NCBI GenBank assembly: GCA_050736695.1
Contig: JBOHWH010000135.1
Coordinates: 28,504-92,503 of the forward strand
Direction of reading: 5' to 3'
From: Candidatus Binataceae bacterium
GTDB taxonomy: Bacteria > Desulfobacterota > Binatia > Binatales > Binataceae
DNA: 64,000 nucleotides
Made by a program: the position numbers and the translations under genes. The stretch's first letter is position 1, and each line of letters opens with the position of its first letter. Under the pieces are notes generated by a model. That model was not told the DNA's origin, did no database searches, and saw only the letters and a program-made list of their open reading frames with translations. This document shows, piece after piece, positions 15,430 through 54,278 of the stretch.

Positions 15430-17295
15430 ATGATGTCCCGACGCGACACGGAACCTGAACGCAAAACTCGCCTAATGCGAGTGGATCCGAAGCTTCACAT
15501 TCTGGGCTGGAAAATGGTCGCATTCAACCCCGATCTTGATTTATCCGCATGCACGGCACATGCGATTACTGAATACCCGACTGACGAAGGCCCGGCCGAT
15601 TACGCTTTGGCTCTCAACGGACGTATCGTCGGAATTATCGAGGCGAAAAAGCTCTCCCTCGGGCCCCAGAATGTCCTGACGCAGGCGGAGCGCTATGCCC
15701 GCAGCCTGCCGCCCAGCGAGTTAAATTTCAACGGCCTGCGCGCGCCGTTCCTGTACTCCACGAATGGCGAGGTGATCTGGTTTCATGACGTGCGCTCGCC
15801 TGCGAGTCGCTCGCGCCGCATCGCCAACTTTCACACGCCGGTCGCTCTGAGCGAGATGCTCGGGCGCGACTTCGAGGCCGAGTGCTATCGGCTGAGGGCG
15901 CTACCTAACATCCACAGCCTTCTGCGCCCCTATCAGCGAGAGGCCAACGCAGCGATCGAGCGAGGGATCGCGGAGCGGAAGCGCGTGATGCTCGTCGCGA
16001 TGGCGACCGGCACCGGCAAGACCTTTACGATGGTGAATCAGGTCTACCGGCTGATGAAATCGGGCGTCGGTCGCCGGATACTCTTCCTCGTCGATCGCCG
16101 GGCGCTGGCGGCGCAGGCGGTTCGCGAGTTTGCCTCGTTCGAGGCGGCGCCGGGCCTAAAGTTCGACAAGATTTACGAGGTTTACAGCCAGCGCTTCCAG
16201 AAAGACGATCTCGATCCCAGCGAGAAGTTCGATCCCAAGGTCATGCCCAACGCCTACCTCACGGATCCGAAGCCGGGAGCGGCGTTCGTTTACGTGAGCA
16301 CTATCCAGCGGATGGCGCGGTATCTGTTTCCCGACCGCAGCTTTGGGGAACGCGACGACGAGGACGAAAACGACCTGCCCGAGCCTCTGCCCATTCCAAT
16401 TCACGCCTTCGACCTGATCATCGCCGACGAATGCCACCGCGGCTACACCGCCGCCGAGCAGTCTCTGTGGCGCGACACGCTCGACCACTTCGATGCGATC
16501 AAAATCGGGCTTACCGCCACGCCCGCGCATCACACCACCGCCTACTTTCGCGACATCATTTACCGCTACGATTACCGCCGCGCCGTGGCCGAAGGCTTCC
16601 TGGTCGATTATGACGCCATCGCGATCAAGTCCGGCGTGCTGGTCAAGGGCATCTTCCTTAAAGAAGGCGATCGCGTGCAGACGGTTGATCCACAATCCGG
16701 CTTGACCGGCATGGACCAGCTCGAAGATCAGCGCCAATTCGACTCGACCGACGTCGAGCGCAAGATCACCGTTCCCGACACCAACAAAAAAATCGTCGAG
16801 GAACTGAAGAAGTACGCGCTGGCGCACGAGCAGAAGTTCGGGCGTTTCCCCAAAACGCTCATCTTTGCGGTCAACGACAAGCCGCACGTTTCACACGCCG
16901 ACCAGCTCGTTGATCTCTGCCGCGACATCTTCGCTCGAGGCGAAGCCTTCGTTGCCAAAATCACGGGGATCGTGGATCGCCCGTTGCAACGGATCCGCGA
17001 GTTCCGCAACCGTCCCGAGCCCGCGATCGTAGTGTCGGTGGACCTAATGTCCACCGGCGTGGACATTCCCAATCTTGAATTCATCGTGTTCGCGCGCCCC
17101 GTCAAGTCGCGCATCCTGTGGGAGCAGATGCTCGGCCGCGGTACCCGCCTCGGCAGCCTGACGCCGCCCAAGTCGCACTTCACGGTCTTCGATTGTTTCG
17201 ATGGCACGCTGTTCAATTACTTCAAGAACGCATCCGCCTTCACGGAAGGCGATTATGCCGTACTTGACTCCGACCCTCGCATGAGTTATATTTGA
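15430..17295 (+). CDS. hsdR: Type I restriction enzyme R subunit, N-terminal portion (HSDR_N PD-(D/E)xK nuclease + SF2 helicase motifs I-VI); gene apparently interrupted after motif VI
   Basis: The nuclease motif (ADYALALNGRIVGIIEAKK), Walker A (MATGTGKT), DECH box (LIIADECHRG) and motif VI (QMLGRGTRL) are all present. The ORF ends at 17295, immediately before the IS1595 transposase gene. The expected C-terminal domain is encoded separately at 20046-20972. Confidence 0.8.
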   Translation: MMSRRDTEPERKTRLMRVDPKLHILGWKMVAFNPDLDLSACTAHAITEYPTDEGPADYALALNGRIVGIIEAKKLSLGPQNVLTQAERYARSLPPSELNFNGLRAPFLYSTNGEVIWFHDVRSPASRSRRIANFHTPVALSEMLGRDFEAECYRLRALPNIHSLLRPYQREANAAIERGIAERKRVMLVAMATGTGKTFTMVNQVYRLMKSGVGRRILFLVDRRALAAQAVREFASFEAAPGLKFDKIYEVYSQRFQKDDLDPSEKFDPKVMPNAYLTDPKPGAAFVYVSTIQRMARYLFPDRSFGERDDEDENDLPEPLPIPIHAFDLIIADECHRGYTAAEQSLWRDTLDHFDAIKIGLTATPAHHTTAYFRDIIYRYDYRRAVAEGFLVDYDAIAIKSGVLVKGIFLKEGDRVQTVDPQSGLTGMDQLEDQRQFDSTDVERKITVPDTNKKIVEELKKYALAHEQKFGRFPKTLIFAVNDKPHVSHADQLVDLCRDIFARGEAFVAKITGIVDRPLQRIREFRNRPEPAIVVSVDLMSTGVDIPNLEFIVFARPVKSRILWEQMLGRGTRLGSLTPPKSHFTVFDCFDGTLFNYFKNASAFTEGDYAVLDSDPRMSYI

Positions 17296-17298
17296 TTC

Positions 17299-18225
17299 AT
17301 GCGAGAGAAGAAGCCCAAAGAGCCATTGGTTCCGCAACTTACCCTGAGTCAGTTCGCGGGCATGTTTCCCGATGAAGCCGCCTGCAAAGCCTATCTGGTC
17401 GCACGCCGCTGGCCGCAAGGCGTCCGTTGCCCGCGCTGCCAGAATGAGAAGGTGTACGAACTGAAAACCCGCCCCTTCCACTGGGTTTGCAAGAAGTGCG
17501 GCAAAACGCCTTATCGCTTCTCGGTCACGGTCGGAACCATCTTTGAGAATACCAATTACAAGTTGCTTGTTTGGTTCAAGGTTCTGCACCTGATGGTGAC
17601 CAGCAAGAAGGGAATCAGCGCGCTTCAAATCCATCGCATGATCGGTTCCGGTTCGTACCGTACCGCATGGTTCATGTGCCATCGGCTCCGCGCCGGTATG
17701 GCCGATCCCGAGTTTCGCCAGTTGATGGGCATCGTCGAAGTGGACGAAACCTATATCGGCGGCAAGGCTCAGAACATGCACCTCAACAAGCGCAAGGCGC
17801 TCGCGCTGACCGGAACCAAAGGTAAGGCGACCGTCATCGGCGCGATCTCCCGCAAGGGCAACGTGGTCTGCAAGGTGATCGAGAATACCGATCAGTTCAC
17901 GCTCGATAGGTTCGTTCGTAAAGCGGTCAATCAAGAGCGCGTCGATATGATCATGTCGGATGAGCACGGCGGTTATCGCCTGCTCGGCACTGGACCGCAG
18001 GCAATGCCGCACGGCGTCGTGCGCCACAGCGCGGGCGAATACGTTCACGGCATTGTGCATACGAATACGATCGAAGGATTCTGGAGCCTGCTCAAGCGGG
18101 GAATCATGGGCAGCTATCACAAAGTCAGCAAGAAATATCTGCCGCTCTACATCAACGAGTTTGTGTTCCGGTACAACAATCGCAAGAATCCGGACATCTT
18201 CGGGAGCGCGATAGCAGGATGCTGA
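17299..18225 (+). CDS. IS1595-family (ISXO2-like) transposase
   Basis: N-terminal transposase zinc-ribbon (CPRCQNEK...CKKCGK) followed by an ISXO2-like DDE domain (VDETYIGG...MSDEHGGY...HTNTIEGFWSLLKRG). Confidence 0.85.
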   Translation: MREKKPKEPLVPQLTLSQFAGMFPDEAACKAYLVARRWPQGVRCPRCQNEKVYELKTRPFHWVCKKCGKTPYRFSVTVGTIFENTNYKLLVWFKVLHLMVTSKKGISALQIHRMIGSGSYRTAWFMCHRLRAGMADPEFRQLMGIVEVDETYIGGKAQNMHLNKRKALALTGTKGKATVIGAISRKGNVVCKVIENTDQFTLDRFVRKAVNQERVDMIMSDEHGGYRLLGTGPQAMPHGVVRHSAGEYVHGIVHTNTIEGFWSLLKRGIMGSYHKVSKKYLPLYINEFVFRYNNRKNPDIFGSAIAGC

Positions 18226-18418
18226 AGCGACCAGACTGGCAGGCGCTTCAGCGGTCGCCAGCCAGTAGACCAACGCAACTCGACTTGTTTCCGAGAGTGC
18301 GGCGCTATGTCTAAACGAGAACCTCATGGTGTTTACGAGAACAAATAAACTAGGCGTACCAGAGCGACAATCCCGACAATGATTCCAAGCCATTGAAGCC
18401 AAGAAAGGTCACACACAA

Positions 18419-18739
18419 ATGATTCGATACTATCTTGCGGTATTCGCTCAGATAGCGAATCTAGTCGGCACTGCGACGATTTTTTTTGCACTGTCTTTTA
18501 CCTCTATCGGATTCCGCGCAGCGGTAGAGCCAACGCTCGGCAGAACCGAATTGTGCTTTGGTGGAGTGGCATTTATCGATTCCGTAGGCCATTTGATGAG
18601 CGCACCGTGCCCAGAGAACTCCACCGGCCAGATCGCGATCGTGAATAGCTTTCATCCAACAATGGCGCTTGTCGGTTTGGGGCTCGTTGTATTCGGTTCG
18701 TTATTTGCGCTTCTGACAATTCAAAAGCCGAAGGTGTAA
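18419..18739 (+). CDS. Hypothetical small membrane protein
   Basis: 106 aa with three hydrophobic segments, in the low-GC passenger region. Confidence 0.35.
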   Translation: MIRYYLAVFAQIANLVGTATIFFALSFTSIGFRAAVEPTLGRTELCFGGVAFIDSVGHLMSAPCPENSTGQIAIVNSFHPTMALVGLGLVVFGSLFALLTIQKPKV

Positions 18740-18743
18740 CGCG

Positions 18744-18887
18744 ATGTCCAAAGAAGGCGAAGCCAAAAAGAAAATTATTCACTTCTACTGTCGCCCGTGC
18801 GGCGAGTACCATCTGAAAACGCATCCGCACTATGCCGCGATGAAGCGGCGAGCCGAGCAGCGCAGGAAAGCCGAGAACGGACGATAA
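18744..18887 (+). CDS. Hypothetical 47-aa protein with CxxC..H...H pattern
   Basis: ATG...TAA ORF not in the ORF track (under 60 aa): MSKEGEAKKKIIHFYCRPCGEYHLKTHPHYAAMKRRAEQRRKAENGR, Lys/Arg-rich. Sits between two passenger genes. Confidence 0.25.
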   Translation: MSKEGEAKKKIIHFYCRPCGEYHLKTHPHYAAMKRRAEQRRKAENGR

Positions 18888-18891
18888 GGGT

Positions 18892-19293
18892 ATGCGAAAA
18901 TTTAACGCTGCGGTTTCGGCGCTCGCAATCGTGTTCGTCTTCGGGTGTTCGAGTCCGACCGATGACTTTGCCGTCGGTAAGACGTACCAGGTAGGTGCGG
19001 GCAAGCACGGATATGTGTGCGCCGGTGCGCCGCATCCGGATGATGCTGAGGTGGATCTAAGCGGAGCAAGCCTCAACCTTCTCAAAGGGCGAGAGTTCAT
19101 CACACAACCTGGGTGTGCAGGCCTGATAGAGTTTGATCGCATCAAAGTTATGGGCGTGAAAGATGACTATTTGGTGGTCGAGGTCGTTTGGGGGTACGAT
19201 CCCACTCGCGATGTGGACGCAACTGGATACGTCGGAATGATGGAGCCGGATTGTCTCGCGCCGGCCGCCCTTCCGGATTTTTCAAAGAAGTGA
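18892..19293 (+). CDS. Hypothetical lipoprotein
   Basis: Signal peptide with lipobox (LAIVFVFGCSS). Confidence 0.5.
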   Translation: MRKFNAAVSALAIVFVFGCSSPTDDFAVGKTYQVGAGKHGYVCAGAPHPDDAEVDLSGASLNLLKGREFITQPGCAGLIEFDRIKVMGVKDDYLVVEVVWGYDPTRDVDATGYVGMMEPDCLAPAALPDFSKK

Positions 19294-19986
19294 ATCAACG
19301 CATTCGGGGGCGCAGCGTCCCACGACCAATTCGCAGCTACCGGCTTGAACAGGAAACTTCAACGCAAGCGACCTGATTTCGTGTTTCAATCCTGCGCGTG
19401 TAAGCGCCCGCGAAAGTCGGCCAACGATCGAGGGCTGGGGACGCTCGCCGCCAATCCTGATAAGCAGACCGGATACATTAGGTGGGATGTCGGGATTGGT
19501 CATACCTCCGCCAAGGCCGAGCGACAGGAAAAGCCGTTGAAATTCCAGCGCGTAACGTCCAGCCTCGCTATCATAGGGATGGACGGCGATTGAAATATCT
19601 GTTTTTTCTTCGGCGGAAAGTGGGCGCAGCGATTCGTAAATTATCCGCCGTTGCTCTCTAGTGATTGTTCGTTGTTGATTACGATGTATTCCCCTTAGTT
19701 CGGTACGAAGCATCCCTATTTCCGCTTTCATTTCGGGCGACGCAGAGCCTTCGGTTCTCGAAAGGAAACTCGCTATCTTCTCATCCTTGAGTTTGTGGCG
19801 CTCTTCGTGAATGAGAAGTTGGCCGTCCCGCGTGGATATTTGGTGGCCGAAGGACCAAGACATCGCAAAATACATTACGATGCCAATGACGAGCAGCAAC
19901 CCGAAAAAGATAACAGGAGCCCCCGCGACCATCTTATACTCCTGCTCCCAATGTCCGACGACCCAACTCAAGATGGCCTCTTTCAT
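19282..19986 (-). CDS. Hypothetical membrane-anchored protein
   Basis: GGGAGA RBS before the internal ATG at 19986, an N-terminal TM segment, then a charged and coiled region. Confidence 0.4.
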   Translation of the reverse strand: MKEAILSWVVGHWEQEYKMVAGAPVIFFGLLLVIGIVMYFAMSWSFGHQISTRDGQLLIHEERHKLKDEKIASFLSRTEGSASPEMKAEIGMLRTELRGIHRNQQRTITREQRRIIYESLRPLSAEEKTDISIAVHPYDSEAGRYALEFQRLFLSLGLGGGMTNPDIPPNVSGLLIRIGGERPQPSIVGRLSRALTRAGLKHEIRSLALKFPVQAGSCELVVGRCAPECVDSLL

Positions 19987-20045
19987 ATAGATCTCCCGCC
20001 CTTGAGATAGACGTTCCCCGTCCATCCCTCAAGGCGAGGGGACTA

Positions 20046-20972
20046 TTGGCGTACTCCCGGCTAAGAGTCAAGTCCAGCATAATCGCCTTCACGGAAGACC
20101 CGCCCGATCGGCCCACGCGCACCATCGAGGAGATCATCCAGGCGATCTGGGACAACCGGGACCGCGCGTACAACGTCCGATGCCTCTGCCGCCGTTTGCT
20201 CCGTATCGACAAGGAGATGTCCGGAAACGCCCGTGAGGCGTTTGCGGCCTACTTCTCGGACGGCGATATGAAGGAGTTTGCGAACCGCGTGCCGCGAGCG
20301 ATTACCGACGATTTCTCGGCGACGATGAAGCTCTTGCGCGATTCTCAATTCCAGCGGCTTCTCGTGAACTATGAGCGCGCACGGCCCTATTTCATCGTCG
20401 CCCACGAGGCCACCGACGAAGTCTCCTCGCGCATTCTGATCCGCGATGCCGCCGGCAACGAGCACCGACCCGAGGACTATCTCGCCGCGTTCGCCCGTTT
20501 CGTAAGCGAGAACCCAGATCGAATCGAGGCTATCCGCATCCTCCTGAACCGTCCCAAAGACTGGAGCACCAACGCGCTGGCGGAATTGCGCCGAAAGCTC
20601 GCCACCGCGCCGCAGCATTTCACGGAAGAGAACTTGAGGCGTGCACACGCGGCGCGCTACAACAAGGCATTGGTCGATATCATCTCGATGGTCAAGCATG
20701 CCGCCAAAGATGAAGAGCCGCTGCTGAGCGCCGCCGAGCGCGTCGATCGCGCGCTCCAGCGCCTCGCCATCGGCCACAAGTTCACCACCGAGCAGCAACG
20801 ATGGCTCGATCGCATCCGCTCGCACCTGGTCGAGAATCTCTCGATTAGCCGCGACGATTTCGATATCGTGCCCGTCCTTTCCAATCCCGGCGGATGGAAG
20901 CCAGCCGATCGCGCATTCGCCGGTAAACTCAAGCCCCTTCTGTCTGCGATAAATGAGGCTGTCGCCCAGTGA
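20046..20972 (+). CDS. hsdR: Type I restriction enzyme R subunit, C-terminal domain fragment (EcoEI_R_C-like) separated from the helicase part
   Basis: 308 aa resembling the HsdR C-terminal domain (...FTTEQQRWLDRIRSHLVENLSISRDDFDIVPVL...). It ends 4 nt into the hsdM start (operon coupling) and lies 2.75 kb downstream of the hsdR helicase fragment. Confidence 0.6.
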   Translation: MAYSRLRVKSSIIAFTEDPPDRPTRTIEEIIQAIWDNRDRAYNVRCLCRRLLRIDKEMSGNAREAFAAYFSDGDMKEFANRVPRAITDDFSATMKLLRDSQFQRLLVNYERARPYFIVAHEATDEVSSRILIRDAAGNEHRPEDYLAAFARFVSENPDRIEAIRILLNRPKDWSTNALAELRRKLATAPQHFTEENLRRAHAARYNKALVDIISMVKHAAKDEEPLLSAAERVDRALQRLAIGHKFTTEQQRWLDRIRSHLVENLSISRDDFDIVPVLSNPGGWKPADRAFAGKLKPLLSAINEAVAQ

Positions 20973-21240
20973 ATGAGAAACGGAACCATCAGATCGACGT
21001 CGTGCAGAAGCTATGGGGCTTCTGTCACGTCCTTCGCCACGACGGGATCGGTTACGGCGAGTATATCGAGCAGATCACTTTCCTGCTCTATCTCAAGATG
21101 GCCGACGAAAAGGGCGTCGCGCTGCCCAAAGGATGCGGCTGGCAGCCCCTGCGCGCCAAAAGCGGCACGGAACTGCTCGACGGCTACGCCGACATGCTGC
21201 GCGCTCTGGGAAAGTCGCCCGGCCTGATCGGCGACATCTC
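20969..21240 (+). pseudogene. hsdM: Type I R-M methyltransferase subunit HsdM, N-terminal roughly 90 codons only (truncated)
   Basis: HsdM N-terminal domain signature (LWGFCHVLRHDGIGYGEYIEQITFLLYLKMADE). Sense is lost after ...PGLIGDI at about 21240, where an unrelated divergent ORF abuts. No hsdS is in the window. Confidence 0.65.
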
Positions 21241-21501
21241 CTCGAGCTCCCAGTGTTTAAATTCGCTCTCGATACGAACGTACCGGAACGACTTACCGGC
21301 TTTTCTCCGATACCAGGGCCGCTGTCCTCTCTTGAAAAAGATGGCGTGAAGCAAAGCCGTCCAAGCGATTGTCATCAGGACCAGATAGTGTGGCGTCCGA
21401 AAGGCCGACCCCGGTCTGTTGTACACCTCAACGGCACTTATCGCCGCAGCGCGAGCTTTTTCGAGATGCGCTCGTGCCGGCCGTGTCAGGCGTGACGGCA
21501 T
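21184..21501 (-). CDS. Hypothetical protein fragment truncated at the hsdM junction
   Basis: AGGAGGCAAACC RBS before the ATG at 21501. The C-terminus runs antisense into the hsdM remnant, so the gene is not intact. Confidence 0.25.
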   Translation of the reverse strand: MPSRLTRPARAHLEKARAAAISAVEVYNRPGSAFRTPHYLVLMTIAWTALLHAIFFKRGQRPWYRRKAGKSFRYVRIESEFKHWELEEMSPIRPGDFPRARSMSA

Positions 21502-21972
21502 ATGGTTTGCCTCCTTGGCTGTCTGTTAGTGGATCGAACAGAAACCGATTCACCACGGGATTTGGAAAAGCGGCGGCAGGAGTATCAGTGAATTTCTTGA
21601 GTTCATCGTCGCGGCAGTTCCAAATCCCTAGACGACAGTAACACCCAGCGCGTACCTTGGGAGCCCGATTCCGGTCGCCTCTGTCCTCCGCGGGTTGGGT
21701 CGTAATTTTCGTTACCGAAAAGCGGACAGGCCAACGGTCAGCGCCCACAGCACGGCAGCGACGACAGAATTAAAGATTACAGACTGGCGAAGGACTCGCT
21801 GCTCGTCTGTGGCTGGCTTATACACCGCGAGGAAAGCGGGTGATTTCCCTGCAATCGAGGTTTCGAGATCCGAATCCTCTGATCCTTGGAGCCAGTAGGA
21901 AAATTCGAGTGCCTTGCTCGCGGCGACTCCAACGCCTCGCGAAGCATGGTGCGCTCCGCAAGACGCTCCATC

Positions 21973-22530
21973 TCAGTTTTGGCGCCACGGCGAAATATCG
22001 AGCCGTCGACGCTGTGTCGAAGACCTATCGACAGGCGTGCCGGCGAATTCATCACGAATTCGGAAGGGGCTGAGGTAGCCTTCCTCGCGAAGTCGCAATA
22101 CCGCCCCAAATCCAATAGCGATTTCGATTGCGGACGGCCGGTGAAGGCTCTCGGTCGATTCTGGGTACCTGATCTCAAACCCGTGCGAATGGCACTTCAA
22201 TCCCAATTCATCGGCTGCTGGCTTGAGAAATTTCGTGAAGAAATAGTCCAGAAGCGCATTGTACTGGTCGGGGGACAAGCTTCTGCCGCGAAATGTGCCG
22301 ATGTTCTCGACACTGATAGCGTCCTTGTCCCGCGCCAGCACGAATCCGATGTCGCCGTATATGCCGCGACATCGGATGGCATAAAACTGAACATTTGTTA
22401 AATCGACAGCTCGACTCTCAGCCTCCAGGTCTCGGTACCAATTCGGCTCCAGGCGCGATTCAATGGTGGCGATCAATTTCCCTAGCGCGTCAGAGTTGCC
22501 GCGGACAACCAGATCAAAACACCACTTCAT
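21973..22530 (-). CDS. Hypothetical protein
   Basis: AAGGAGAATCGT RBS before the ATG at 22530. 185 aa with natural-looking composition. Immediately downstream of terL, in a roughly 50% GC patch. Confidence 0.45.
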   Translation of the reverse strand: MKWCFDLVVRGNSDALGKLIATIESRLEPNWYRDLEAESRAVDLTNVQFYAIRCRGIYGDIGFVLARDKDAISVENIGTFRGRSLSPDQYNALLDYFFTKFLKPAADELGLKCHSHGFEIRYPESTESLHRPSAIEIAIGFGAVLRLREEGYLSPFRIRDEFAGTPVDRSSTQRRRLDISPWRQN

Positions 22531-22626
22531 ACGATTCTCCTTGCGCAAATGAGTCCGCTCCGTCACCGGTCGAGCCGAGTAAACCATCGCAGCAAATGAC
22601 GCAGATCGAGCGTGGCCACTCGCCGC

Positions 22627-24255
22627 CTACCAGGTTCCACGATTTCTTCCCAGCGAGCGTGCGATACTTGCCGGCGCCCATCCATCCCAACGATGAGTAC
22701 GCGGAGATCGGTAATCATCGTCGTAATCGTCGGCGAATGGATCGCCGACCAGGCGCTGGTCCGAACCTGGCGGATTACGAGCTGAGTAGTACTCGATCTT
22801 CTGCGGTGACTTGCACAGCGCCAGCATGAGCGCTTCAGCCCGATCGGGCGAAGGCACGCCACGAGCCCGCGCGCTTTCTTTCGATTCGATTTTCAAGCGC
22901 CCTTGGGAATCGAGTTCCCAGCGAATGCCTGCGAGTTGGCCGATCGTCTCCTCGTCCGTCAATCTATCGACTTGATCGCGTTCCAACGCGTCGGCGAGCG
23001 CCTGGTAGAAGCAGGCTTTCTGGTTGACGAAGCGCCGCGTCGGATCGTTTTCCCCGAGGTTGGGTTTGCTCTCGCAGGGCAGCGCCACGTTGATCAATTC
23101 GACCGGAAACCTTTCGTCGCGCAGGTGCAAGCCGAAGTTGTGGCCGATGCCGATCGCATCGACGCGGACCACCGCGAGGCGCTGGCGAAATTCGCTGAGG
23201 AAGCGAACCACCTGTCCGCGGGTATCCTCTCCGCGCCAGGCACCCATCGCGACAATTCTCCATCGGTCGCCGCAGCGCTCACATACATAGACGACGGTTT
23301 CAGCCTGGCCGCCGCCGACATCCACTCCGGCGAAGAGCGGAGCATTTCCCGCCGCGTGGTTTGAATCCTTGAGCGCACGCTGCTTGGCCCGTTCTAGCCA
23401 GATCAGTTTGATTAAGGCGTCTTGCGCCTGGTCCGGAAACCGCGCCAGTACTCGCGACAGCCAGTTTGGAGAGCTGGCTTCGTTGCCATGCCACCAGGAC
23501 TGATGCTGATCGTAAACCCAGCGTTTGCCAACCAGATAAGAAACCAGATTGCGATCGAGTGGGCCGCCGTCTGCGGGATCCATCTGCAGCAGCTGTTCAA
23601 GCGTGATGCCTTTCAGATTCGGCGAGTCAAAAGCGCCGATCGTGAAGCAGTTCCAAAGGCCGCGCTCTTTGCTGAAGGCGTCGAAAAAGGCGCCCGACGG
23701 GATGGTTGGATTCCCCGCCATCACGATGTGCACGATGCCTCCCGCCATCGTTCCGGCAATCGCGTCCCAGATGCCCGATTCAATCCCGGGTGCTTCGTCG
23801 GCGATGATGAGAACGTATTTTCCGTGATAACCCTGAAAGTTTTCTGACTGATTGGTCGAAAAACCGATCGCGAAGTTGTTGTCGTCGCGGAACTTGAGCT
23901 CGGTTGTTTTCAATTTCGGGTAGGGGACTTTGGCGCGTTCCACCAGCCGGTGGATCTCGGTCCAGAGCTGGGTGCGCACCTGCCGCTGAGTGGGCGAGGT
24001 GGTCAGGACGATGCCTTCGGGAAAACGCGCCAACCACCACAGCGCGGCGATAGCGAGCGTGAAGGTCTTGCCGACGCCGTGGCACGCCTTGATTGCGGTT
24101 CTTCTGCGACTCTTGATCGACCGCAAAATCTCGGCCTCGGTGGTCCAGAGGTCCACGCCCAGTACATGGGTGGCGAACAGAACCGGATCGCTCATTACCT
24201 TCTTTGCGAAAAGCTTTTGTTCGTCAGAGAGTTCGTGATAACTTTTGACTTTCAT
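22627..24255 (-). CDS. terL: Phage terminase large subunit (ATPase + nuclease)
   Basis: Walker A GVGKT in an N-terminal ATPase domain (IKACHGVGKTFTLAIAALWW), Walker B-like LIIADEA, and a C-terminal RNaseH-like nuclease region. GAGGAAGAAG RBS before the ATG at 24255. Confidence 0.85.
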   Translation of the reverse strand: MKVKSYHELSDEQKLFAKKVMSDPVLFATHVLGVDLWTTEAEILRSIKSRRRTAIKACHGVGKTFTLAIAALWWLARFPEGIVLTTSPTQRQVRTQLWTEIHRLVERAKVPYPKLKTTELKFRDDNNFAIGFSTNQSENFQGYHGKYVLIIADEAPGIESGIWDAIAGTMAGGIVHIVMAGNPTIPSGAFFDAFSKERGLWNCFTIGAFDSPNLKGITLEQLLQMDPADGGPLDRNLVSYLVGKRWVYDQHQSWWHGNEASSPNWLSRVLARFPDQAQDALIKLIWLERAKQRALKDSNHAAGNAPLFAGVDVGGGQAETVVYVCERCGDRWRIVAMGAWRGEDTRGQVVRFLSEFRQRLAVVRVDAIGIGHNFGLHLRDERFPVELINVALPCESKPNLGENDPTRRFVNQKACFYQALADALERDQVDRLTDEETIGQLAGIRWELDSQGRLKIESKESARARGVPSPDRAEALMLALCKSPQKIEYYSARNPPGSDQRLVGDPFADDYDDDYRSPRTHRWDGWAPASIARSLGRNRGTW

Positions 24256-24781
24256 TGTCTTCTTCCTCAATCGGTCCGATTGCCTCGAGTAGCTGGACGA
24301 GTGTTAGGGGCGCACCATCTTTGCCGGTCAGCTCGTGGCGCTGGGGTGCCGCATAGCCGTTGATCTGCGCCGCATGGCGGAGCACCTTGACCCCGGCTTC
24401 AACCGACCGAGGATTGCCTTTGCGTATGCCGGGTTGGAGGTTCATGAACATCTCTTCGCACCGGGAGGTGTCGAGCTTGCGAAACTCGTCGGCTGCAATC
24501 GACGGATCGCGCGCGATCGCTCTCCGAAATGCTTTGTGAATCGCCTGCCGCGAGATTTGAAAGTCAGGCAGGAACGTGACTCCGTCCGGGATCGCGACGA
24601 TCGCCTGGGCTTGGTGTTTCCCCACGCGGGCGATCTGGTCCGCGATCGCGTCGAAGGTCAGGCCAATGCGTTTTAGATGAAGCGTTTCGGCTTCGATCCA
24701 CCTCGCCCTGAGCACCGCCGCAGAAACTACCGTTGGACGATGGGTGCCGCGCCAAGTTCCGTCCGGGTGGCGCCTCATCAC
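24224..24781 (-). CDS. Putative phage terminase small subunit
   Basis: 185-aa ORF immediately upstream of and overlapping terL, downstream of the ParB-MTase; position and size are consistent with a small terminase. Confidence 0.35.
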   Translation of the reverse strand: MMRRHPDGTWRGTHRPTVVSAAVLRARWIEAETLHLKRIGLTFDAIADQIARVGKHQAQAIVAIPDGVTFLPDFQISRQAIHKAFRRAIARDPSIAADEFRKLDTSRCEEMFMNLQPGIRKGNPRSVEAGVKVLRHAAQINGYAAPQRHELTGKDGAPLTLVQLLEAIGPIEEEDNESQKLSRTL

Positions 24782-26133
24782 TCACCCACCAATTCGGGCT
24801 TGAGGCCGAGCGCCGCCATGCGTTCCAGCGCAACCGCGACGAACGGCGGGGATTTTTCAATCGCGTAACAGCGCCGACCGGTCTGCTCGGCCGCGACCAA
24901 CTGCGATCCGCTGCCAGAGAACGGCTCGTAACAGATGTCGCCGCGCTCGGTGTGCATCTCCATGGGAAGCGCGAACAACCGGCAAGGCTTACAGGTTGGA
25001 TGTGCGTCGGTCTCGACTTCCGAACTTGGGACTTCCCAGACCGTGCTGGGAAACTCGCCCGCGATTTTGCCGAGATCTGAGCGTAGCGTCTTGGGTTTCT
25101 CGCCTCTGATCCAACCGAACAAACATGGTTCGTGCTGCCAGAGGTAGGTCGAGTAGGTCAACACCGGGCGACTCTTGACCCAAATGATCTGCTGGTGAAC
25201 GAAGGCGCCGAACTCGCCCCAGATCGATTCGAGCATCATCTGGCGGCGCGATGCGTGCCAGCAATACCACGCGGCGTTGCGGACAATCGCATGCTCGATC
25301 GCCATCCCGATGAACCCGCGGTAGAGTTCGACTCCTGCCTCCTCGGCGTTCTTAACGTCCGCGCTTTTCGCTTCCACGTACACCCCCGACCAATTCTTGT
25401 CGCGGTTTGCAGCGCCTCGATTTCCCCAGCTCTGTGGATGGGAACCGCCGGTGTACCCGACCGCGTAGGGCGGGTCGGTCGCGAACAGGACCGCGCGCTC
25501 GTCGCCCATCAACCGCGCGACGTCCTCGGGTTTGGTTGCGTCACCGCAGAGCAGGCGATGCGCGCCCACTCGCCAGAGTTGGTTCGCGCGCGTGCCCCAT
25601 TTTTTCTGGAGTTCGGCTGCTTGCTCGATTTGTGCCGGCGGTTCGGCCTGCGGATGGATCAGGCTCCACAGCCGGTCGCCTGCGGTACGCCGAAGGAGAT
25701 CTTCAACCGCGGGGCTATCGGTTCTCACGGTCTGGAGAAGCGTTCCGATTCGCTCGGAGTCGGATTCGGCTAGGGAAGCGAGCGGATCGAGGGTAAGCAA
25801 CAGTTTGTCCGCCTCCGCTTCATCGAGGTCCAGAATGAGCACCGGAACTTCGAAGTCCGGCGTGGTTTCGGCGCGCAAGTGACCGTCAATCAACATGAGC
25901 CTTCCGTTTCCCAGTTCGCGGGCAAGCAGCGCGTCGGCGTACCCGATCTCGGCGAGAAGGTCACGCAGGGCATTCGCCTGAGCCTTTGGATGGCGCCGCC
26001 AGTTTTTCGGATTGGAAAGCAGGTCCCGAGCCGGGACTCGACGCAGCTCTCTTATGCGATCCCGAATCGCGATGGCGCCGTTGGAATTTGTTGATGTTGC
26101 GTTAGCCATTCGACATCTCGGTTCAATTCTCAT
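24778..26133 (-). CDS. ParB-like nuclease domain fused to an N-4/N-6 DNA methyltransferase (phage-type orphan MTase)
   Basis: N-terminal ParB/sulfiredoxin-like motif (LIDGHLRAE) and a C-terminal MTase with the DPPY motif (FATDPPYAVGY) plus a SAM-binding region (YEPFSGSGSQLVAAEQTGRRCYAIE). Confidence 0.85.
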   Translation of the reverse strand: MRIEPRCRMANATSTNSNGAIAIRDRIRELRRVPARDLLSNPKNWRRHPKAQANALRDLLAEIGYADALLARELGNGRLMLIDGHLRAETTPDFEVPVLILDLDEAEADKLLLTLDPLASLAESDSERIGTLLQTVRTDSPAVEDLLRRTAGDRLWSLIHPQAEPPAQIEQAAELQKKWGTRANQLWRVGAHRLLCGDATKPEDVARLMGDERAVLFATDPPYAVGYTGGSHPQSWGNRGAANRDKNWSGVYVEAKSADVKNAEEAGVELYRGFIGMAIEHAIVRNAAWYCWHASRRQMMLESIWGEFGAFVHQQIIWVKSRPVLTYSTYLWQHEPCLFGWIRGEKPKTLRSDLGKIAGEFPSTVWEVPSSEVETDAHPTCKPCRLFALPMEMHTERGDICYEPFSGSGSQLVAAEQTGRRCYAIEKSPPFVAVALERMAALGLKPELVGE

Positions 26134-26355
26134 TTTGGAGAAAAACCGAGACTGGAATCAAAGTGACAAATTGCAAGTGCCAGGGGGGATTTCGTCACCC
26201 GCATCTCGGCCTTGCCTGCTGTCGCTTTTCGCAGGCCAGGGCAGCGCTCCAGCCGTCCGACAGCATATGAGCCAATGTGGAAATTAGGCGCCACTAGAAC
26301 GCTCAGCGTCGGATAGCGCCCGACACGCAGCCCTGCCGTGTCACGCTAGCCTGAG

Positions 26356-27435
26356 CTAGGGCCGCTCGTTGCGGGACCGGCCCAGGGTACCTTTGCGTTT
26401 TTGAGAACGGAGAATGGCGCGACGGCGACTGCTGGCAGATATGTCCCTATTTTCGACGGCTTGCTCGCGCTTCCGCATCCGGACGTAGCTATCGAGCGAA
26501 AGTGCGCGGCCGATCGCCACTTTAAATAGCTCGTTCAAGACCTCATCAATTTTCGGCTGCGAAAGCGCCCGATATCCGTCTTTGAGTAGAACCCCGGGCC
26601 ACAGGAAAACCCACATGTTGCGCCGGAACGTCTGGCCAAGACTGTCCCGCGGACGTCCCTGTGGTCTGTTCGAGGCCAAATGCTGCAATTTATCCTGCAG
26701 AGTGTCGAGCGCGACTGAGACATGATCGGGAAGCCAGGTTGGCTCTCGCAGTTCCCGCCTGAGATTCAGTAGCAGCGAGAGCGCGCGTCCTGCGCCAGCG
26801 CCTTTCAGCCCTTTACGCGCCTCGGCGCAGCGGAAGTTCCAGCAAGCCTCTTCGAGGTTCTCCAGTCGCTTCGTCTGGTATCTACGCAGGGGGCTGAGCA
26901 ATTGATAAGCCTGCGTGCGCTGGAACTGCGCGCGGAAGGCAGCCTTTGCCTCCGCCCGCTCTTCTTGCATGGATGGGAGGTCGCAAAATGTCTCCAAAGC
27001 CCGACCTCTCTGCAAACTGGAATCGTCCGAAGATTTCATCGCAATGATAATGGTAGCACGTCCCCATGCGTTTCCCTGACATCTGGGCAGACACTTTTTC
27101 CACAAATCAATAGGGTCCAGGAGATTTGGAGTAGTGGTTTGCCCAGGGTATTTTGTACCAGCTGTCAAATTGAAGCTGGAACTGGAGGAACCCCGCAGTG
27201 GCAAGGCGACAGTACACGGCGGAAGAGATCGTATTAGCGGTTCGCATATGTCGGCATCTGAATCGCAGCGCGCCTGCCGGAGCAGATCGGGGTTAGATTC
27301 CGTTGGATTAGAGAATGACAAATGCTGTCCGATTGAAACGAACAACTCATAAATTGACTTGGTCGCTGCTGGCAGTCTGGCTGGCATGGGAAGGTTACTT
27401 GCTTGTCGCGGGCTTGTGGCCCTTTTTGGGGCCAC
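26356..27435 (-). CDS. Hypothetical protein (start uncertain)
   Basis: Long ORF. The C-terminal two-thirds has protein-like composition; the upstream third lies in a low-GC stretch and may be non-coding. Confidence 0.3.
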   Translation of the reverse strand: MAPKRATSPRQASNLPMPARLPAATKSIYELFVSIGQHLSFSNPTESNPDLLRQARCDSDADICEPLIRSLPPCTVALPLRGSSSSSFNLTAGTKYPGQTTTPNLLDPIDLWKKCLPRCQGNAWGRATIIIAMKSSDDSSLQRGRALETFCDLPSMQEERAEAKAAFRAQFQRTQAYQLLSPLRRYQTKRLENLEEACWNFRCAEARKGLKGAGAGRALSLLLNLRRELREPTWLPDHVSVALDTLQDKLQHLASNRPQGRPRDSLGQTFRRNMWVFLWPGVLLKDGYRALSQPKIDEVLNELFKVAIGRALSLDSYVRMRKREQAVENRDISASSRRRAILRSQKRKGTLGRSRNERP

Positions 27436-30771: not shown

Positions 30772-32361
30772 CTATTTGTTCTTCGGCGCTTTCCCCGTTC
30801 CCGACAGCTTCACCGACTGCTGCTCAGCATTGTCGATGATCATCAGGGTGGCCGTAGACGATACGGCGGCGGTCGGCGCGAACGTAATTCCGATCGCGCA
30901 CTCCGAGCCTGGGTATAGCTCCGCCGGAAAACTGCACCTATTATCCACGCCGAACGGACTGCCCCCTCCGCTGAGTCCTTCGATCAGCACAGTGATACCG
31001 GGCTTCTTCTTGCTCCCCTTGGGATTGCGCATGATGACACGCTTGGGCCCCTTAAGACTCCCTACCTCCACGCTGCCGAAATTCAGCGATGTCGGTCTGA
31101 TCCTGAGCTCAACCGGTACCGGTGTTGGCGTCGGTGTTGGCGTCGGTGGAATTCCAGGGCCTATTGCGTAAAGGCGATTTGGCCCATACGGATAGACGTT
31201 CATGTAGATCGTTCCGTCGGCGCCGATCGCCGGCGCTCCTTCTATAAGGGAAATACCGCCGGCCGCGGTGGCGAACTTCCACTTAATGGAGCCGTCGGGG
31301 TTGATCGCGTAGATATTCCCGTCATTGGCGCCAACATAGATAGCGCCATCGGCTCCAATCGCCGGCGACGAGATTACCGCCGCGTCCTCAGTAAAAACTT
31401 GCCACCTGAAACTGCCGTTGGGGTTTAACCCCCACACGCTGCGTCCGTCTCCAAAATAGATTGCGCCATCGGCCCCAATAGCTGGCGAGGATAGTACCCA
31501 GTAATTCGGTGACTGGAACCGCCACTTTAACGAACCGTCGGGATTGATGGCGAACAGGTAGGCGATACTATTCGGGTAACCCCCAGTAAATTCGGAACCG
31601 ACATAGATAGTACCATCCGCCCCTACTGCCGGAGAAGACTCCACGTCGCCAGGCGTCGTGAAGAACCACTTCAACGAGCCGTCGGGGTTTACTGCATAGA
31701 CGTTGTAGTCAGCGGAACCAAAGTAGATTGTTCCGTCGGTAGCGATCGCCGGAGAGGACATCTCATTGGTCCCATAATTTCCTTCCGCCAGCACCCACTT
31801 CGCGGTGCCGTCGGGGTTGATCGCATACAGTTTGCCGTCATCGCAGTACACGTAGATGGTTCCATCGGCTCCGATTGCGGGCGAGGATTCTAATTCAAAG
31901 CCGGTTTGGAAAATCCACTTCAATGTACCATCCGGATTTACTGCGTATAGGTAACCGGTTCGGATATCGCCGGCTGAAGGAGCGTAGATCGTTCCATCGG
32001 CTCCGATTGCGGGCGAAGGGTACAGTGGCCAGGCGGCTGCGAACGTCCACTTCACCGTCCCGTCCTGATTAAATGCGTAGAGATTATTGTCTCCAGGCGT
32101 TGAATAGATGGTTCCATCCACGCCAAGGGTGGGCGACGATAGCGGCGCAAAAATAGTGCCCCCTGGGTAAACAAACAACCATTTCTGGACGCCGTTGTTG
32201 GCGCTGGTGTCGAATGAGCTTTGGCCAGTGTGTGCAGAGTCGTGCCGGAAGACCGGCCAAGGCGAAGCCGCCAGTTGTGCACGCGGCGCGCTCGTCAACG
32301 AGACTATGAGCAAAACGCCAGCGGCCAAACTCAATAAAACGATCGGACCAATTCGGCCCAC
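30772..32361 (-). CDS. Secreted PQQ-type beta-propeller repeat protein with TPTPTP linker and C-terminal beta-sandwich domain
   Basis: About nine repeats of ...SSPAIGADGTIY...NPDGS.KW.F... form a PQQ-like/BamB-like propeller. A signal peptide is present. The linker is PTPTPTPTPVP, and the C-terminal domain resembles that of the adjacent S53 protease. Confidence 0.75.
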   Translation of the reverse strand: MGRIGPIVLLSLAAGVLLIVSLTSAPRAQLAASPWPVFRHDSAHTGQSSFDTSANNGVQKWLFVYPGGTIFAPLSSPTLGVDGTIYSTPGDNNLYAFNQDGTVKWTFAAAWPLYPSPAIGADGTIYAPSAGDIRTGYLYAVNPDGTLKWIFQTGFELESSPAIGADGTIYVYCDDGKLYAINPDGTAKWVLAEGNYGTNEMSSPAIATDGTIYFGSADYNVYAVNPDGSLKWFFTTPGDVESSPAVGADGTIYVGSEFTGGYPNSIAYLFAINPDGSLKWRFQSPNYWVLSSPAIGADGAIYFGDGRSVWGLNPNGSFRWQVFTEDAAVISSPAIGADGAIYVGANDGNIYAINPDGSIKWKFATAAGGISLIEGAPAIGADGTIYMNVYPYGPNRLYAIGPGIPPTPTPTPTPVPVELRIRPTSLNFGSVEVGSLKGPKRVIMRNPKGSKKKPGITVLIEGLSGGGSPFGVDNRCSFPAELYPGSECAIGITFAPTAAVSSTATLMIIDNAEQQSVKLSGTGKAPKNK

Positions 32362-32524
32362 GTCCTTGTAACGTTTCGTTGGATTTCCCCCCGCTTACTC
32401 GGTCCCCGCTCGCAGACGCTATTTTGGTACTCATGGAGAGACGGTGCAACCTTTTTCCCATCCAGGTAGTAGGGTCTGAGCATTACTAGAACGTCGTTTG
32501 GCTTGCCTATCCGGAAAGCGGCGC

Positions 32525-32586
32525 GTCAACCGCCAGGGCTGTCAACCGCCGCTTGTCAACCGCCCCATAGTGTCAACCGGTTGACA
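32525..32586 (+). promoter_or_regulatory. Iteron array: three direct GTCAACCGCC repeats (14-16 bp phasing) plus the palindrome TGTCAACCGGTTGACA, adjacent to the right island junction
   Basis: GTCAACCGCC occurs at 32525, 32541 and 32555. The perfect 16-bp palindrome lies at 32571-32586. The array is 20 bp upstream of the tRNA-3'-end-like repeat (32606). Confidence 0.4.
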
Positions 32587-32605
32587 GAGAGCACCTGCTA
32601 TCGGA

Positions 32606-32975
32606 CTGCGTCATCCACCATTCAGTCTCTTAGTATTCGCACATCTCGGAGAGCCGCGCGAAATCCGCGCTGGCCCGAGAAGGAGAACCACGTGAACGCG
32701 AATACTAAACCCGTCGCTGCTACGCCGCCGCCGGCGCTGCCTTCGAAAAACAGGAAGGACGCGCCTCGGCCATCGCGGTCATCGCGTGCAGGCGGCCCAA
32801 GCGGAGAATTTGGTTTGTCGATACTGCGGCAGCGAAGATCTCGCGCCGTCGTTCAAGAAGCGACGCCCGATGCCGCGCCTGCTTCAAGAACCGCTACGGT
32901 TCGGCTCCGCGCAAGAAGGCCACGCGCACTCGGAAGCCGAAGGCTGCGAAGTAGTTCGCGGCGCAACCAATGTCA
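32606..32975 (+). repeat. Right copy of the direct repeat (tRNA-Val 3'-end-like sequence plus pseudogenised copy of the small zinc-ribbon gene), marking the right border of the island
   Basis: ctgcgtcatccacca...acatctcggaga...gaaggagaaccacgtgaacgcgaatac... is collinear with 10178-10745, apart from a roughly 170-bp segment that it lacks and several indels. Confidence 0.7.
32690..32950 (+). pseudogene. Degraded paralog of the small zinc-ribbon protein gene (frame-disrupting 1-bp and 5-bp indels)
   Basis: Same N-terminus (MNANTKPVAATPPPALPSKNRKDAPRPSRSSRA), but the CxxC region appears only in a shifted frame (the 32786 ORF: ...LVCRYCGSEDLAPSFKKRR...). Confidence 0.55.
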
Positions 32976-33122
32976 TTGGGCGCGGGGGAACCCGTGACAC
33001 GCACGCGGGGTACACAGGTTCGTGGCGTGATAATGAAAATCCTTTGGCCCAACAATCAGGCGCGAACTTCGCATTTGCAAACTAAATGGTTTTGGTGCCA
33101 AGTCTCACCCAGGTGAAGTATA

Positions 33123-33701
33123 ATGCGAATCAAAGGAGTTGACCCGGAGCATGTCCCGGAGAGCGTAAAGTCAATCTTTCAACGAAGCCTCGACCTGTTC
33201 GGGCGTGTCATCACGCCCAGTACGGTGCTGGCGCATCGGCCGGAGATTCTGCTCGCCGCAGGACAATTGGGCAAGGCGGTTGGCGCCTCGACGGTGGTCG
33301 AGGGCCGTCTCAAGACGATGGTCTCGGTGCGCGCGGCGCAAATGGTCGGCTGTCCCTTTTGAGTAGACATCAACTCTGCCGTCGGCAGAAACGCCGGTAT
33401 TACCGATGAGCAACTCGGAGATTTAGCCACCTTCGAGACCAGTGCGCGTTTCGACCGCCGCGAAAAGGCAGCGTTGCGCTATGCCGAAGGGATGACGCGC
33501 ACGCCCGCTGATGTCTCCGAGGCGGTGTTCGAAGAGGTGAGATCGTTCTTCAACACGGAGCAAATGGTGGAATTGACAGCGGCGATCGCGCTCGAGAATT
33601 TCAGGGCGCGGCTCAACTGCGCGTTCAAGGTCGAGAGCGACGGCTTGTGCCTGCTGCCGGCTGATCATCCAGTGCGCAAGGCGTTGGCCAAACGTCCGTG
33701 A
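33123..33701 (+). CDS. AhpD-like (carboxymuconolactone decarboxylase family) protein with one in-frame TGA at the CxxC position; candidate selenoprotein (CPF-U), otherwise a nonsense pseudogene
   Basis: ORFs 33123-33362 and 33474-33701 are in the same frame, and the only intervening stop is TGA at 33360-33362. The TGA falls where CMD proteins carry the second Cys of Gly-Cys-x-x-Cys (here GCPF-TGA-VD). A 5-bp-stem hairpin (CTGCC-GTC-GGCAG, 33376-33388) puts G and U in the loop at +22/+23 from the UGA, close to the G23/U24 geometry of the E. coli fdhF SECIS. No Sec-machinery genes are in the window. Confidence 0.5.
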
Positions 33702-34110
33702 ATCCGGATGCCGCGGAGGATTCGATAGCCCCGGTCTGAACGGCGGACTGAACCCGGCGCCCACGTCCTGAGGCCAAAGAACAACGGCCCCGGCCGGCGG
33801 CTGCCGGTGATGAGACGCGCGATCTCTGAAAGAAAGCGGTATTGCTTGCCGCGAAAGAGCGCGCCGTGTTCGAGCACCGTCACCTGATGCTGGACTCCGC
33901 CCCGCTCGCGCAGCAGGATGGCGTCGGCTTAGAGTTTGCGCACGGAGACGACTCTAATCGGCCTGCACTCACCCACATTGTTGGCGACCTGTTCGAGCAG
34001 GCGGTGCGTGGCGGAGCCAGTCCGCCGGGCGTGCGTTCCTTCATGCGGTAGACGACCGCGCGGCTCCGGCGTTGACAACCACGATCGCGGGCGTCTCCGT
34101 AAGTTGCTTT
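33665..34110 (-). pseudogene. DUF2924-family gene remnant (frameshifted), with its partner recombinase deleted
   Basis: The 33665-33883 ORF matches the intact DUF2924 C-terminus ([37 protein letters not shown] vs TVLEHGALFRGKQYRFLSEIARLITGSRRPGPLFFGL). The 33880-34161 ORF, in another frame, matches the mid-region (YRLQERALGGVRPSTQRILDRVCNG vs YRMKERTPGGLAPPRTACSNRS). No recombinase follows. Confidence 0.5.
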
Positions 34111-34157
34111 TCGCGCGGATTGGGTTTGAGAAACCACAGCCCGCATGCGCCCGGATT

Positions 34158-35435
34158 TCAATCAGTTCCGCAAGCGCCCGGCTTGCTTTCCAAGGTGGGA
34201 TCTCGCACCAAAATTCCGTCGGCGTAGAGCTTGCGGATTTCGCCTTCGTTCATCTTCAGCAGCTCACGGAGAACGCGCTCGTTGTCCTCGCCGAGCCTTG
34301 CGGCGCGGACCTCGGTCCGATCCGGCCACGCGGAAAACTTCACCGGGACCGCCGGAATTGCGACCTTGCCAAGCAGCGGATCCTGGACCCATCGAACTGT
34401 CTTGCGCTCATTGTGATGTGGATGCTTGACGGCCTCGTTGACCGTCAGCACCGGCGCGCACGGCACCCGCTCGGCATCGAGCGCGGCGATCGCGTCGTCG
34501 CGGGTTGGAAATTTAGAGAGCCAGTCCTCGATGACGTCCCTGAGCTGCTCCTTGTTGTCGCGCCTGGCGCGGGCGCTATTGAAGCGCGGATCGTCCGCCA
34601 ATGCGGGCATCCCGAGCGCACGGATGACCTGCGGCCACTGATGAGGCGTCGAGGTGATCAGCACGTACTGCTCGCCGCGATAATGATAGATGCCGGTCGC
34701 TCCGCCGTCGGGATGCAGCGAGCCGCTGCGGGTCGGCCGATACTTGTCGCCGCGTAACGACACCATCGGCACCGTCTTCTCGTGCATATGGAAGTAGGTG
34801 TCCAACAGCGAGGCGTCCAGGTACTGGCCTTCGCCGGTGCGCTCGCGATGGAGCAGCGCAAATCCAATCGCCATCGCGGCGTTGACGCCGGTCGATACGT
34901 CGCCAATCGCCATGCTGGTCAGCGCCGGCGGTCCGCCAACCTGGCCGATGCCGTCGGTGACGCCCGCGTACGCCTGGCCGATGAAGTCGTAGCCGGCCTT
35001 GTTCGAGAGCGGTCCGCTCTGTCCCGCCATCGAGATCGAGCACATGATGATTTTCGGATTCACCGCCTTCACGTCGGGGTAGGAAAACCCGAGCCGATCG
35101 ATCACGTGCGGCGCGAAATTTTCGACCACCACATCGATCTGCGGAATCATCGCCATGACGATTTCGCGCGCGCGCGGCTTTTTAAGATCGATCGCGAAAC
35201 TCAGCTTCGAGTGATTGTGCTGAAGATAGTAGGTGCTGTGGCTGGAGTTCTTGTATTCCGGCGCGAGCGATTTCAGCCCATCGGCGCGCACCCGATCGCC
35301 CGCGGGCGCGAGCTCGAGCTTGATCACCTCGGCGCCCATCTCGCCAAGAATTCGCGTGCAAGTCGGTCCTGCCACGAACTGCGTGAAATCCAGTACCCGG
35401 TAACCTTCGAGCATTCGTGGCGGATCGTTTGTCAT
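34158..35435 (-). CDS. CoA-transferase family III protein (CaiB/BaiF; formyl-CoA transferase / acyl-CoA racemase-like)
   Basis: The N-terminus GYRVLDFTQFVAGPTCTRILGEMGAEVIKLE is the family III CoA-transferase signature. 425 aa. Confidence 0.85.
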   Translation of the reverse strand: MTNDPPRMLEGYRVLDFTQFVAGPTCTRILGEMGAEVIKLELAPAGDRVRADGLKSLAPEYKNSSHSTYYLQHNHSKLSFAIDLKKPRAREIVMAMIPQIDVVVENFAPHVIDRLGFSYPDVKAVNPKIIMCSISMAGQSGPLSNKAGYDFIGQAYAGVTDGIGQVGGPPALTSMAIGDVSTGVNAAMAIGFALLHRERTGEGQYLDASLLDTYFHMHEKTVPMVSLRGDKYRPTRSGSLHPDGGATGIYHYRGEQYVLITSTPHQWPQVIRALGMPALADDPRFNSARARRDNKEQLRDVIEDWLSKFPTRDDAIAALDAERVPCAPVLTVNEAVKHPHHNERKTVRWVQDPLLGKVAIPAVPVKFSAWPDRTEVRAARLGEDNERVLRELLKMNEGEIRKLYADGILVRDPTLESKPGACGTD

Positions 35436-52194: not shown

Positions 52195-52218
52195 GCCGCG
52201 CCGCTGACTAACGGAGGA

Positions 52219-54270: not shown

Positions 54271-54278
54271 GGTGATTC

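Follow-up and report, generated by a model that had tools for sequence, protein, structure and literature searches.

The window, a stretch of 64,000 nucleotides from a Candidatus Binataceae genome, contains on its plus strand a gene at 33123-33701 whose translation runs through a single frame of 192 codons with TGA at 33360-33362 as the sole internal stop, as the initial annotation had described. The peptide around this codon is ...AAQMVGCPF*VDINSAVGR..., and the gene is terminated by a second TGA at 33699-33701. The two open reading frames originally listed here, 33123-33362 and 33474-33701, do share this frame, but their separation is a product of the ORF-listing rules. The CMD-like sequence downstream of the internal TGA is intact as claimed, but the frame stays open for 112 codons (33363-33698), not 110. 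The match to the Pfam family CMD (PF02627) covers residues 41-122 and spans the internal TGA (E=1.4e-10). The following features were assigned:

33123..33701, plus strand: candidate selenoprotein coding sequence, supported by the single frame, the Pfam CMD match across the TGA, co-linear homologs, codon-position divergence, and the AF2 model of the homolog P0001.
33111..33116, plus strand: Shine-Dalgarno-like AGGTGA, read from the sequence 6 nt 5' of the ATG at 33123, putative in function.
33351..33353, plus strand: TGT codon of Cys77, first residue of the CxxU motif and presumed resolving thiol, invariant across homologs.
33360..33362, plus strand: in-frame UGA, predicted selenocysteine codon U80, with about 96 TGA, five TGT/TGC and one TAA at this column.
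33375..33389, plus strand: predicted bacterial SECIS hairpin with the 6-bp stem UCUGCC/GGCAGA and the apical loop GUC, from the minimum free energy fold and comparative data.
33648..33650, plus strand: TGC codon of Cys176, a conserved residue of the C-terminal tail (DG[LF]C) in the Sec clades.

The gene is flanked by genes of a beta-propeller protein and a CoA-transferase on the other strand. In the synteny comparison these neighbours are not conserved beside the gene in other loci of its clade (clade 1), and therefore the genomic context yields no clue to function. The promoter scan produced a single promoter-like site, whose -10 hexamer overlaps the ATG of the gene and which is probably due to chance. 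The terminator scan found no terminator 3' of the gene. The 760-nt stretch upstream (32362-33122) contains no recognisable gene; an ORF within it, 32786-33085, encodes a CxxC motif (CRYCGSEDL) and matches no Pfam family. No other TGA-bridged coding segments were found in the window, except for this gene and adjacent genes sharing a frame by chance.

Several other features of the window were observed. A probable integrated mobile element occupies 10110-27435, next to a tRNA-Val gene (10110-10187). It contains a serine recombinase gene (10826-12616, minus strand), a terminase-like ORF (22627-24270, minus strand), a DNA methylase gene (24778-26133, minus strand), and a type I restriction gene (HsdR) that an IS1595 transposase (17299-18225) divides into pieces at 15304-17295 (ResIII/HSDR_N) and 20046-20972 (EcoEI_R_C), with an HsdM_N fragment at 20969-21349. 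The TauE/SafE ORF 6682-7107 (plus strand) immediately follows a DHH-like ORF (5631-6680) and matches only positions 119-237 of the 237 in the profile; possibly it is a sulfite-exporter gene that has been truncated or frameshifted. The region 50467-59211 carries a complete kdpA-kdpB-kdpC operon followed by genes of a KdpD sensor domain protein, a PAS histidine kinase and a sigma-54-dependent response regulator.

The best NCBIfam match of the candidate selenoprotein is NF053654, "GroundWater_YciW: YciW-related (seleno)protein" (E=1.7e-40, 138.7 bits against a cut-off of 310). It is full-length and co-linear, residues 2-175 aligning with positions 3-176 of the 179 in the profile. Two sister clades (clades 2 and 3) and the Cys forms score 86-146 bits with the same model, also under the cut-off. 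The match to TIGR01926 (peroxidase-related enzyme) is again full-length, 4-170 on 4-173 of 178, at 36 bits with a cut-off of 81.8; judged by these scores, the window protein is a divergent relative of TIGR01926 and not a member of the model. Full-length co-linear homologs begin with MRIKG. The tail residue Cys176 is invariant in alignment A2, and clades 2 and 3 show QGFC at this place.

By sequence, the closest solved structures are PA0269 (E about 2e-12), Atu0492, and Bmp8. The motif C77-P-F-U80 aligns with CAYC of PA0269 and CMYC of Bmp8, and the UGA is indeed placed at the second redox cysteine, as initially proposed, since it corresponds to the second Cys of CxxC in all three proteins. The structure modelled was that of P0001, a homolog 75% identical to the window protein and recorded with W at the Sec position. 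The AF2 model (pLDDT 89) is all-helical, with the motif at the N-terminus of helix 78-90. Foldseek aligns it at TM of about 0.8 with Bmp8, the AhpD proteins of D. radiodurans and S. pneumoniae, and TIGR01926-type "peroxidase-related" proteins, including about 0.8 with 6k40 and 6e8l; E for M. tuberculosis AhpD is about 1. This model shows a CMD/AhpD fold for the product of 33123-33701. Neither the Sec forms nor the Cys forms of the family have the AhpD histidine that follows the motif. Its lack had been given as a caveat, and this caveat stands: the sequence is U-V-D-I-N, with Asp at +2 and Asn at +4. Since there is no His at +4, the chemistry may differ from that of classical AhpD.

A second CMD-family gene was observed at 7891-8505 (minus strand). 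Its product is 25-30% identical to the selenoprotein family and has no CxxC. Directly upstream lies a gene of a FAD/NAD(P)-binding oxidoreductase (8569-9984, minus strand); an AhpC/TSA peroxiredoxin gene (999-1649, minus strand) and a ferritin-like gene (4528-5058) are in the vicinity.

A search of 5.8 billion proteins produced 309 relatives. Among the best 120 of these, 118 are C-terminal halves of 105-114 amino acids beginning right after the stop (V/MDINSA...), and only two are full-length. Both of the latter have W at the Sec position because they were translated with genetic code 4; their DNA has TGA. Trp at the Sec position is seen in the JGI records P0001, P0002, P0132, and P0133 (loci L004 and L005). 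Such code 4 artefacts disguise selenoproteins as apparently full-length "W" proteins; the TGA was seen in the DNA for P0001 and P0002.

The genome scan, with one genome per species, identified 17 loci, mostly in metagenome-assembled genomes of Candidatus Binataceae or "delta proteobacterium". All 14 loci at 58-93% identity, from Binataceae or "delta proteobacterium", have TGA, and the three most distant ones (39-54% identity) have TGT or TGC at this column. The metagenome scan added 80 loci; the census covers 100. A stop codon occupies the column in 97 related sequences, down to 39% protein identity: TGA in about 96 and TAA in one (L041). Five distant homologs have a Cys codon, in the motif GCPFC (TGT) in L020, L022, and L048 and GCE[WF]C (TGC) in L021 and L071; Cys is also present in the proteins P0121-P0130. 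No sense codons other than those of Cys were seen at this column. Thus the comparison of homologs proposed in the initial annotation, U or C at this position, reveals a Sec/Cys pair exactly there, with about 96 TGA against five TGT/TGC. A search seeded with a Cys form retrieved only about ten full-length Cys proteins, and therefore the Sec forms dominate within what was sampled.

Some loci of the census have peculiarities of their own. In the clade 1 relative L041, the TAA at the Sec codon (positions 193-195) is accompanied by an intact hairpin and downstream frame; the cause is a true nonsense mutation of very recent origin or else an error of sequencing. The Cys-form homolog in L022 (10001-10562) loses the conserved frame after approximately residue 125 and is recorded as the 130-aa protein P0131; it appears to be a frameshifted or degraded copy, with an in-frame stop downstream of the motif. 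Loci L007 and L009 (binchicken bins) are titled "uncultured Enterobacteriaceae bacterium", and their gene is 76-78% identical to the Binataceae-type selenoprotein; the Enterobacteriaceae label of these contigs looks wrong. In one lineage of Binatia (L001, L002, L003) the gene is directly downstream of a molybdopterin oxidoreductase gene, a linkage absent in the window. The oxidoreductase gene is intact in L001 (7493-9742), and cut by IS elements in L002 (2617-4082); in L003 (2419-4667) it is in two parts that overlap by 1 nt, probably due to a frameshift or an assembly error.

The coding sequence is maintained before and after the UGA. A second in-frame stop between codons -55 and +95 occurs in none of 90 unique sequences, so that the further disabling mutations sought at the suggestion of the initial annotation are absent. 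Upstream of the UGA, sequences differ pairwise by 0.24/0.19/0.56 at codon positions 1/2/3, and downstream by 0.21/0.16/0.53; this divergence pattern shows equal purifying selection on the two sides. TGA terminates 29 of 50 window ORFs chosen by GC3, as well as this gene, and is the commonest ordinary stop. It is therefore not reassigned genome-wide, and a change of the genetic code (TGA read as Trp or Gly) was rejected.

The hairpin UCUGCC-GUC-GGCAGA starts 11-12 nt after the UGA and has six base pairs and a loop at 33381-33383. The one proposed initially, at 33376-33388, is real and one base pair longer. If the U of UGA is nucleotide 1, the loop G is nucleotide 22 and the loop U is nucleotide 23. 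In the E. coli fdhF SECIS, the essential loop nucleotides are G23 and U24; the wording "very close" used for this geometry was fair, the difference being one nucleotide. A seventh pair, 33374/33390, is formed in most relatives and replaced by a C.A mismatch in the window. Taken alone, the 71-nt fold of the window sequence is not unusual (z=-1.35), and hence the significance of the hairpin rests on comparative data.

A first set of these data comes from the synonymous positions. Among 55 conserved four- and sixfold degenerate codons in 38 unique sequences of clade 1, the four lowest synonymous entropies (0-0.57, with the median 1.54) belong to the stem codons +5 TCT, +6 GCC, +8 GGC, and +9 AGA. 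Two of them, +5 TCT and +9 AGA, are rare codons in this 61% GC DNA. The loop codon +7 has an entropy of 1.87, the highest among the codons flanking the UGA. The same holds for the 47 sequences of clade 2, where +5 GCA, +6 TCC, and +8 GGG are invariant and the loop codon is free. The expected pairing is formed in 97% of cells over 36 sequences, compared to 35-56% with the partner displaced by 1-3 columns. Double-sided changes affect only two pairs, U-A to C-G in L015 (UCCGCC..GGCGGA) and the outer C-G to G-C in L049; covariation inside the clade of the window is thin because the stem hardly varies. The stems of the three clades differ in sequence, each being complementary and at the same position, starting at nucleotides 15-16 counted from the U of UGA, with a G in the apical loop:

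Clade 1, with the window: C-UCUGCC-GNN-GGCAGA-G.
Clade 2: GCAUCC-C[GA]GG or CGUG-GGAUGC.
Clade 3: UCCCGC-GGUCU-GCGGGA; in L087/L095 a synonymous pair of changes, A to C and A to G, extends the stem.

Among the Cys homologs, the three closest, of the GCPFC type, have no such stem sequence, and the two GCE[WF]C homologs have a comparable minimum free energy fold. The stem is weakened in a few relatives (L036, L042, L043/L046). The Rfam search of 32300-34200 at E<=10 returned only noise, with no general bacterial SECIS family among the matches. These comparisons show that the hairpin is under constraint at the RNA level: as the initial annotation had suggested checking, it is kept at the nucleotide level, with synonymous change in the stem suppressed and compensating stems in the sister clades.

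No components of the Sec machinery were found in the 64-kb window by the Pfam scan of 40 ORFs and by ARAGORN, used for tRNA-Sec. A tblastn search with E. coli SelA, SelB, and SelD, together with ARAGORN, over the window and 103 loci (838 kb) also found none, save for a weak GTPase match in L021, and ARAGORN found no tRNA-Sec in 20 related loci. The absence of the sel genes from the window and the loci is uninformative, because such genes need not be linked to a selenoprotein gene. In the library of papers searched, none links Binatia or Binatota with selenocysteine.

Given that the UGA is conserved and forms a Sec/Cys pair with the homologs, that the RNA hairpin is constrained, that both halves are under purifying selection and that a CxxU motif lies on an AhpD fold, we conclude, in support of the initial annotation, that 33123-33701 is in all likelihood (with a probability of about 0.88) a real CxxU selenoprotein gene with a bacterial SECIS in a Candidatus Binataceae-like genome, encoding a thiol/selenol oxidoreductase. 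It has the defining architecture but does not reach the curated cut-offs, and is best regarded as a new unannotated clade of a known kind of selenoprotein.

The likely mechanism is as follows. The UGA at 33360-33362 would be decoded as selenocysteine, the hairpin acting as a SECIS that brings SelB and Sec-tRNA(Sec) to the ribosome stalled at this codon, and translation would then run through 112 more codons to the normal TGA stop. The C77-x-x-U80 motif would be located at the helix N-terminus, U80 taking the place of the second Cys of the AhpD CxxC. In M. tuberculosis AhpD the second Cys of CxxC is the nucleophile, and by analogy we infer that U80 attacks and C77 resolves. The selenolate of U80 might attack an oxidised substrate such as a peroxide, a sulfenic acid, a disulfide or a similar electrophile, Cys77 would resolve the intermediate to form an intramolecular selenenylsulfide, and an external thiol reductant would recycle the latter.

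An unlikely possibility, raised by the loss of the His/Glu relay in this Sec-dominated clade, the third invariant Cys in the tail and Bmp8 as the nearest structural neighbour, is that the selenoprotein does not act as a peroxidase partner. It could then be a selenium-dependent reductase for another electrophile, for example an enzyme of reductive dehalogenation on the CMD fold.

It is still less likely that the UGA is read through without selenocysteine, a near-cognate or suppressor tRNA inserting Trp, Cys, Gly or Arg and the hairpin serving as a generic stimulator. Such a reading agrees with the fact that no Sec machinery was found in the 64-kb window or in the 838 kb of related loci, and the conserved UGA, the hairpin and the downstream selection do not by themselves identify the inserted amino acid. 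However, the position is that of the catalytic second Cys of CxxC, and Cys codons are the only sense codons there in homologs; as a Cys codon is one mutation away, it would be a simpler solution than inefficient read-through. Moreover, the start of the hairpin, its small apical loop and the loop G fit the description of bacterial SECIS elements (PMC1088965), and the related AhpD/YciW families are curated selenoproteins.

Slightly less probable again is a split CMD protein, with translation stopping at the UGA and restarting at an adjacent GTG or ATG, so that chains of 79 and about 111 amino acids assemble. Indeed, GTG, a possible start, follows the TGA in 35 of 42 clade 1 sequences, and public annotations call exactly these two ORFs. 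However, in the window the UGA is followed by GTA, and the next in-frame start, TTG at 33474, is 38 codons downstream; other relatives have GTC or GTT at this codon, and clades 2 and 3 mostly ATC (36), ATT (11) or ATA (1), with ATG in only 5. This distribution argues against stop and restart. Further, splitting would remove the catalytic residue of CxxC and cut at the first turn of the active-site helix, and the Cys homologs are single chains.

Finally, a pseudogene, due to a recent nonsense mutation in an ordinary CxxC AhpD-like gene, or a sequencing error, is the default reading of an in-frame stop and has parallels in the TAA of L041 and the apparent frameshift of the Cys-form L022, but its probability is negligible: the same TGA in about 96 independent assemblies at 39-93% identity, the absence of other stops and equal purifying selection on both sides exclude the recent nonsense mutation that the initial annotation had kept as its alternative.

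If the selenoprotein reading is accepted, the consequences mainly concern annotation and the taxonomic range of Sec use, as this enzyme type is already known and the mechanism of selenoprotein synthesis is unchanged. In public databases the gene and hundreds of its relatives each appear as a pair of short ORFs without any stated relation ("hypothetical protein", "alkylhydroperoxidase family enzyme"), in some cases with a false Trp. No NCBIfam cut-off catches these clades, and a model built on them would correct the annotation. Sec insertion would mean that selenocysteine is used by Candidatus Binataceae and Binatota as well as by a large group of soil bacteria with clades 2 and 3, and Binatota would be an undocumented Sec-using phylum of aerobic soil bacteria. 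Were the dehalogenase-like reading true, bacteria would have a counterpart of deiodinase chemistry. In this family a SECIS is embedded in a conserved peptide (NSA[VG]GR, NASRGM or NSSRGL), a clean natural case whose three alternative solutions for the stem sequence are useful for SECIS models.

The AhpD-like (COG2128/YciW) proteins with CxxU have been known as a bacterial selenoprotein family since 2005, and the statement of the initial annotation that such a family had been reported is thus documented (PMC1088965, PMC2398784; also in tables of PMC9312934 and PMC13188914). The group named "AhpD-like 1" (COG2128/YciW, TIGR01926-type, CxxU) was described from the Sargasso Sea and GOS metagenomes; with 299 Sec and 902 Cys sequences in GOS, it is among the most abundant selenoproteins of marine metagenomes (PMC1088965, PMC2398784). 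A Sec/Cys pair at an aligned position is the pattern that defines selenoproteins (PMC1088965). The window protein resembles AhpD-like 1 in the CMD/AhpD fold, the length of about 180-190 amino acids, the CxxU motif, the existence of Cys homologs, and the SECIS hairpin directly downstream with a G in the small apical loop. On the other hand, the gene comes from soil or terrestrial Binataceae-like bacteria and not from marine samples, and the Sec to Cys ratio is roughly 20:1 in its clade as sampled. In place of the His of TIGR01926-type proteins and Bmp8, the window protein has D at +2 and N at +4. The curated (seleno)protein family NF053654 has the same architecture, whereas the clade of the window, clades 2 and 3, and the Cys forms lie outside this equivalog as sister clades and would not receive its name.

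Classical AhpD, as in M. tuberculosis (Rv2429), D. radiodurans (6k40) and S. pneumoniae (6e8l), shares the fold and the redox motif at the same helix N-terminus. In its CxxCxxxH motif, the His, with a Glu, forms a proton relay. The window protein, in contrast, has Sec in place of Cys and Asn at +4 in place of this His. Nor is its gene adjacent to ahpC, the sole AhpC/TSA gene of the window being 31 kb away. The closest solved structure by fold is the tetrabromopyrrole debrominase Bmp8 (6ohi/6ohj; TM 0.79-0.84). In Bmp8 and in the CMD proteins PA0269 of P. aeruginosa and Atu0492 of A. tumefaciens, the CxxC aligns with CxxU. However, these three are Cys enzymes with 19-26% identity to the window protein, and the His that follows their second Cys, at +3 in Bmp8 and +4 in PA0269 and Atu0492, is absent from the latter.

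The predicted hairpin differs from the SECIS of E. coli fdhF in its short, perfect stem of 6-7 bp, which closes a 3-nt loop and lacks a bulged U, and in the position of the loop G/U one nucleotide closer to the UGA. The two elements are alike in being hairpins within the coding sequence, 11-12 nt after the UGA, with a loop G, followed by U or G, at nucleotides 22-24.
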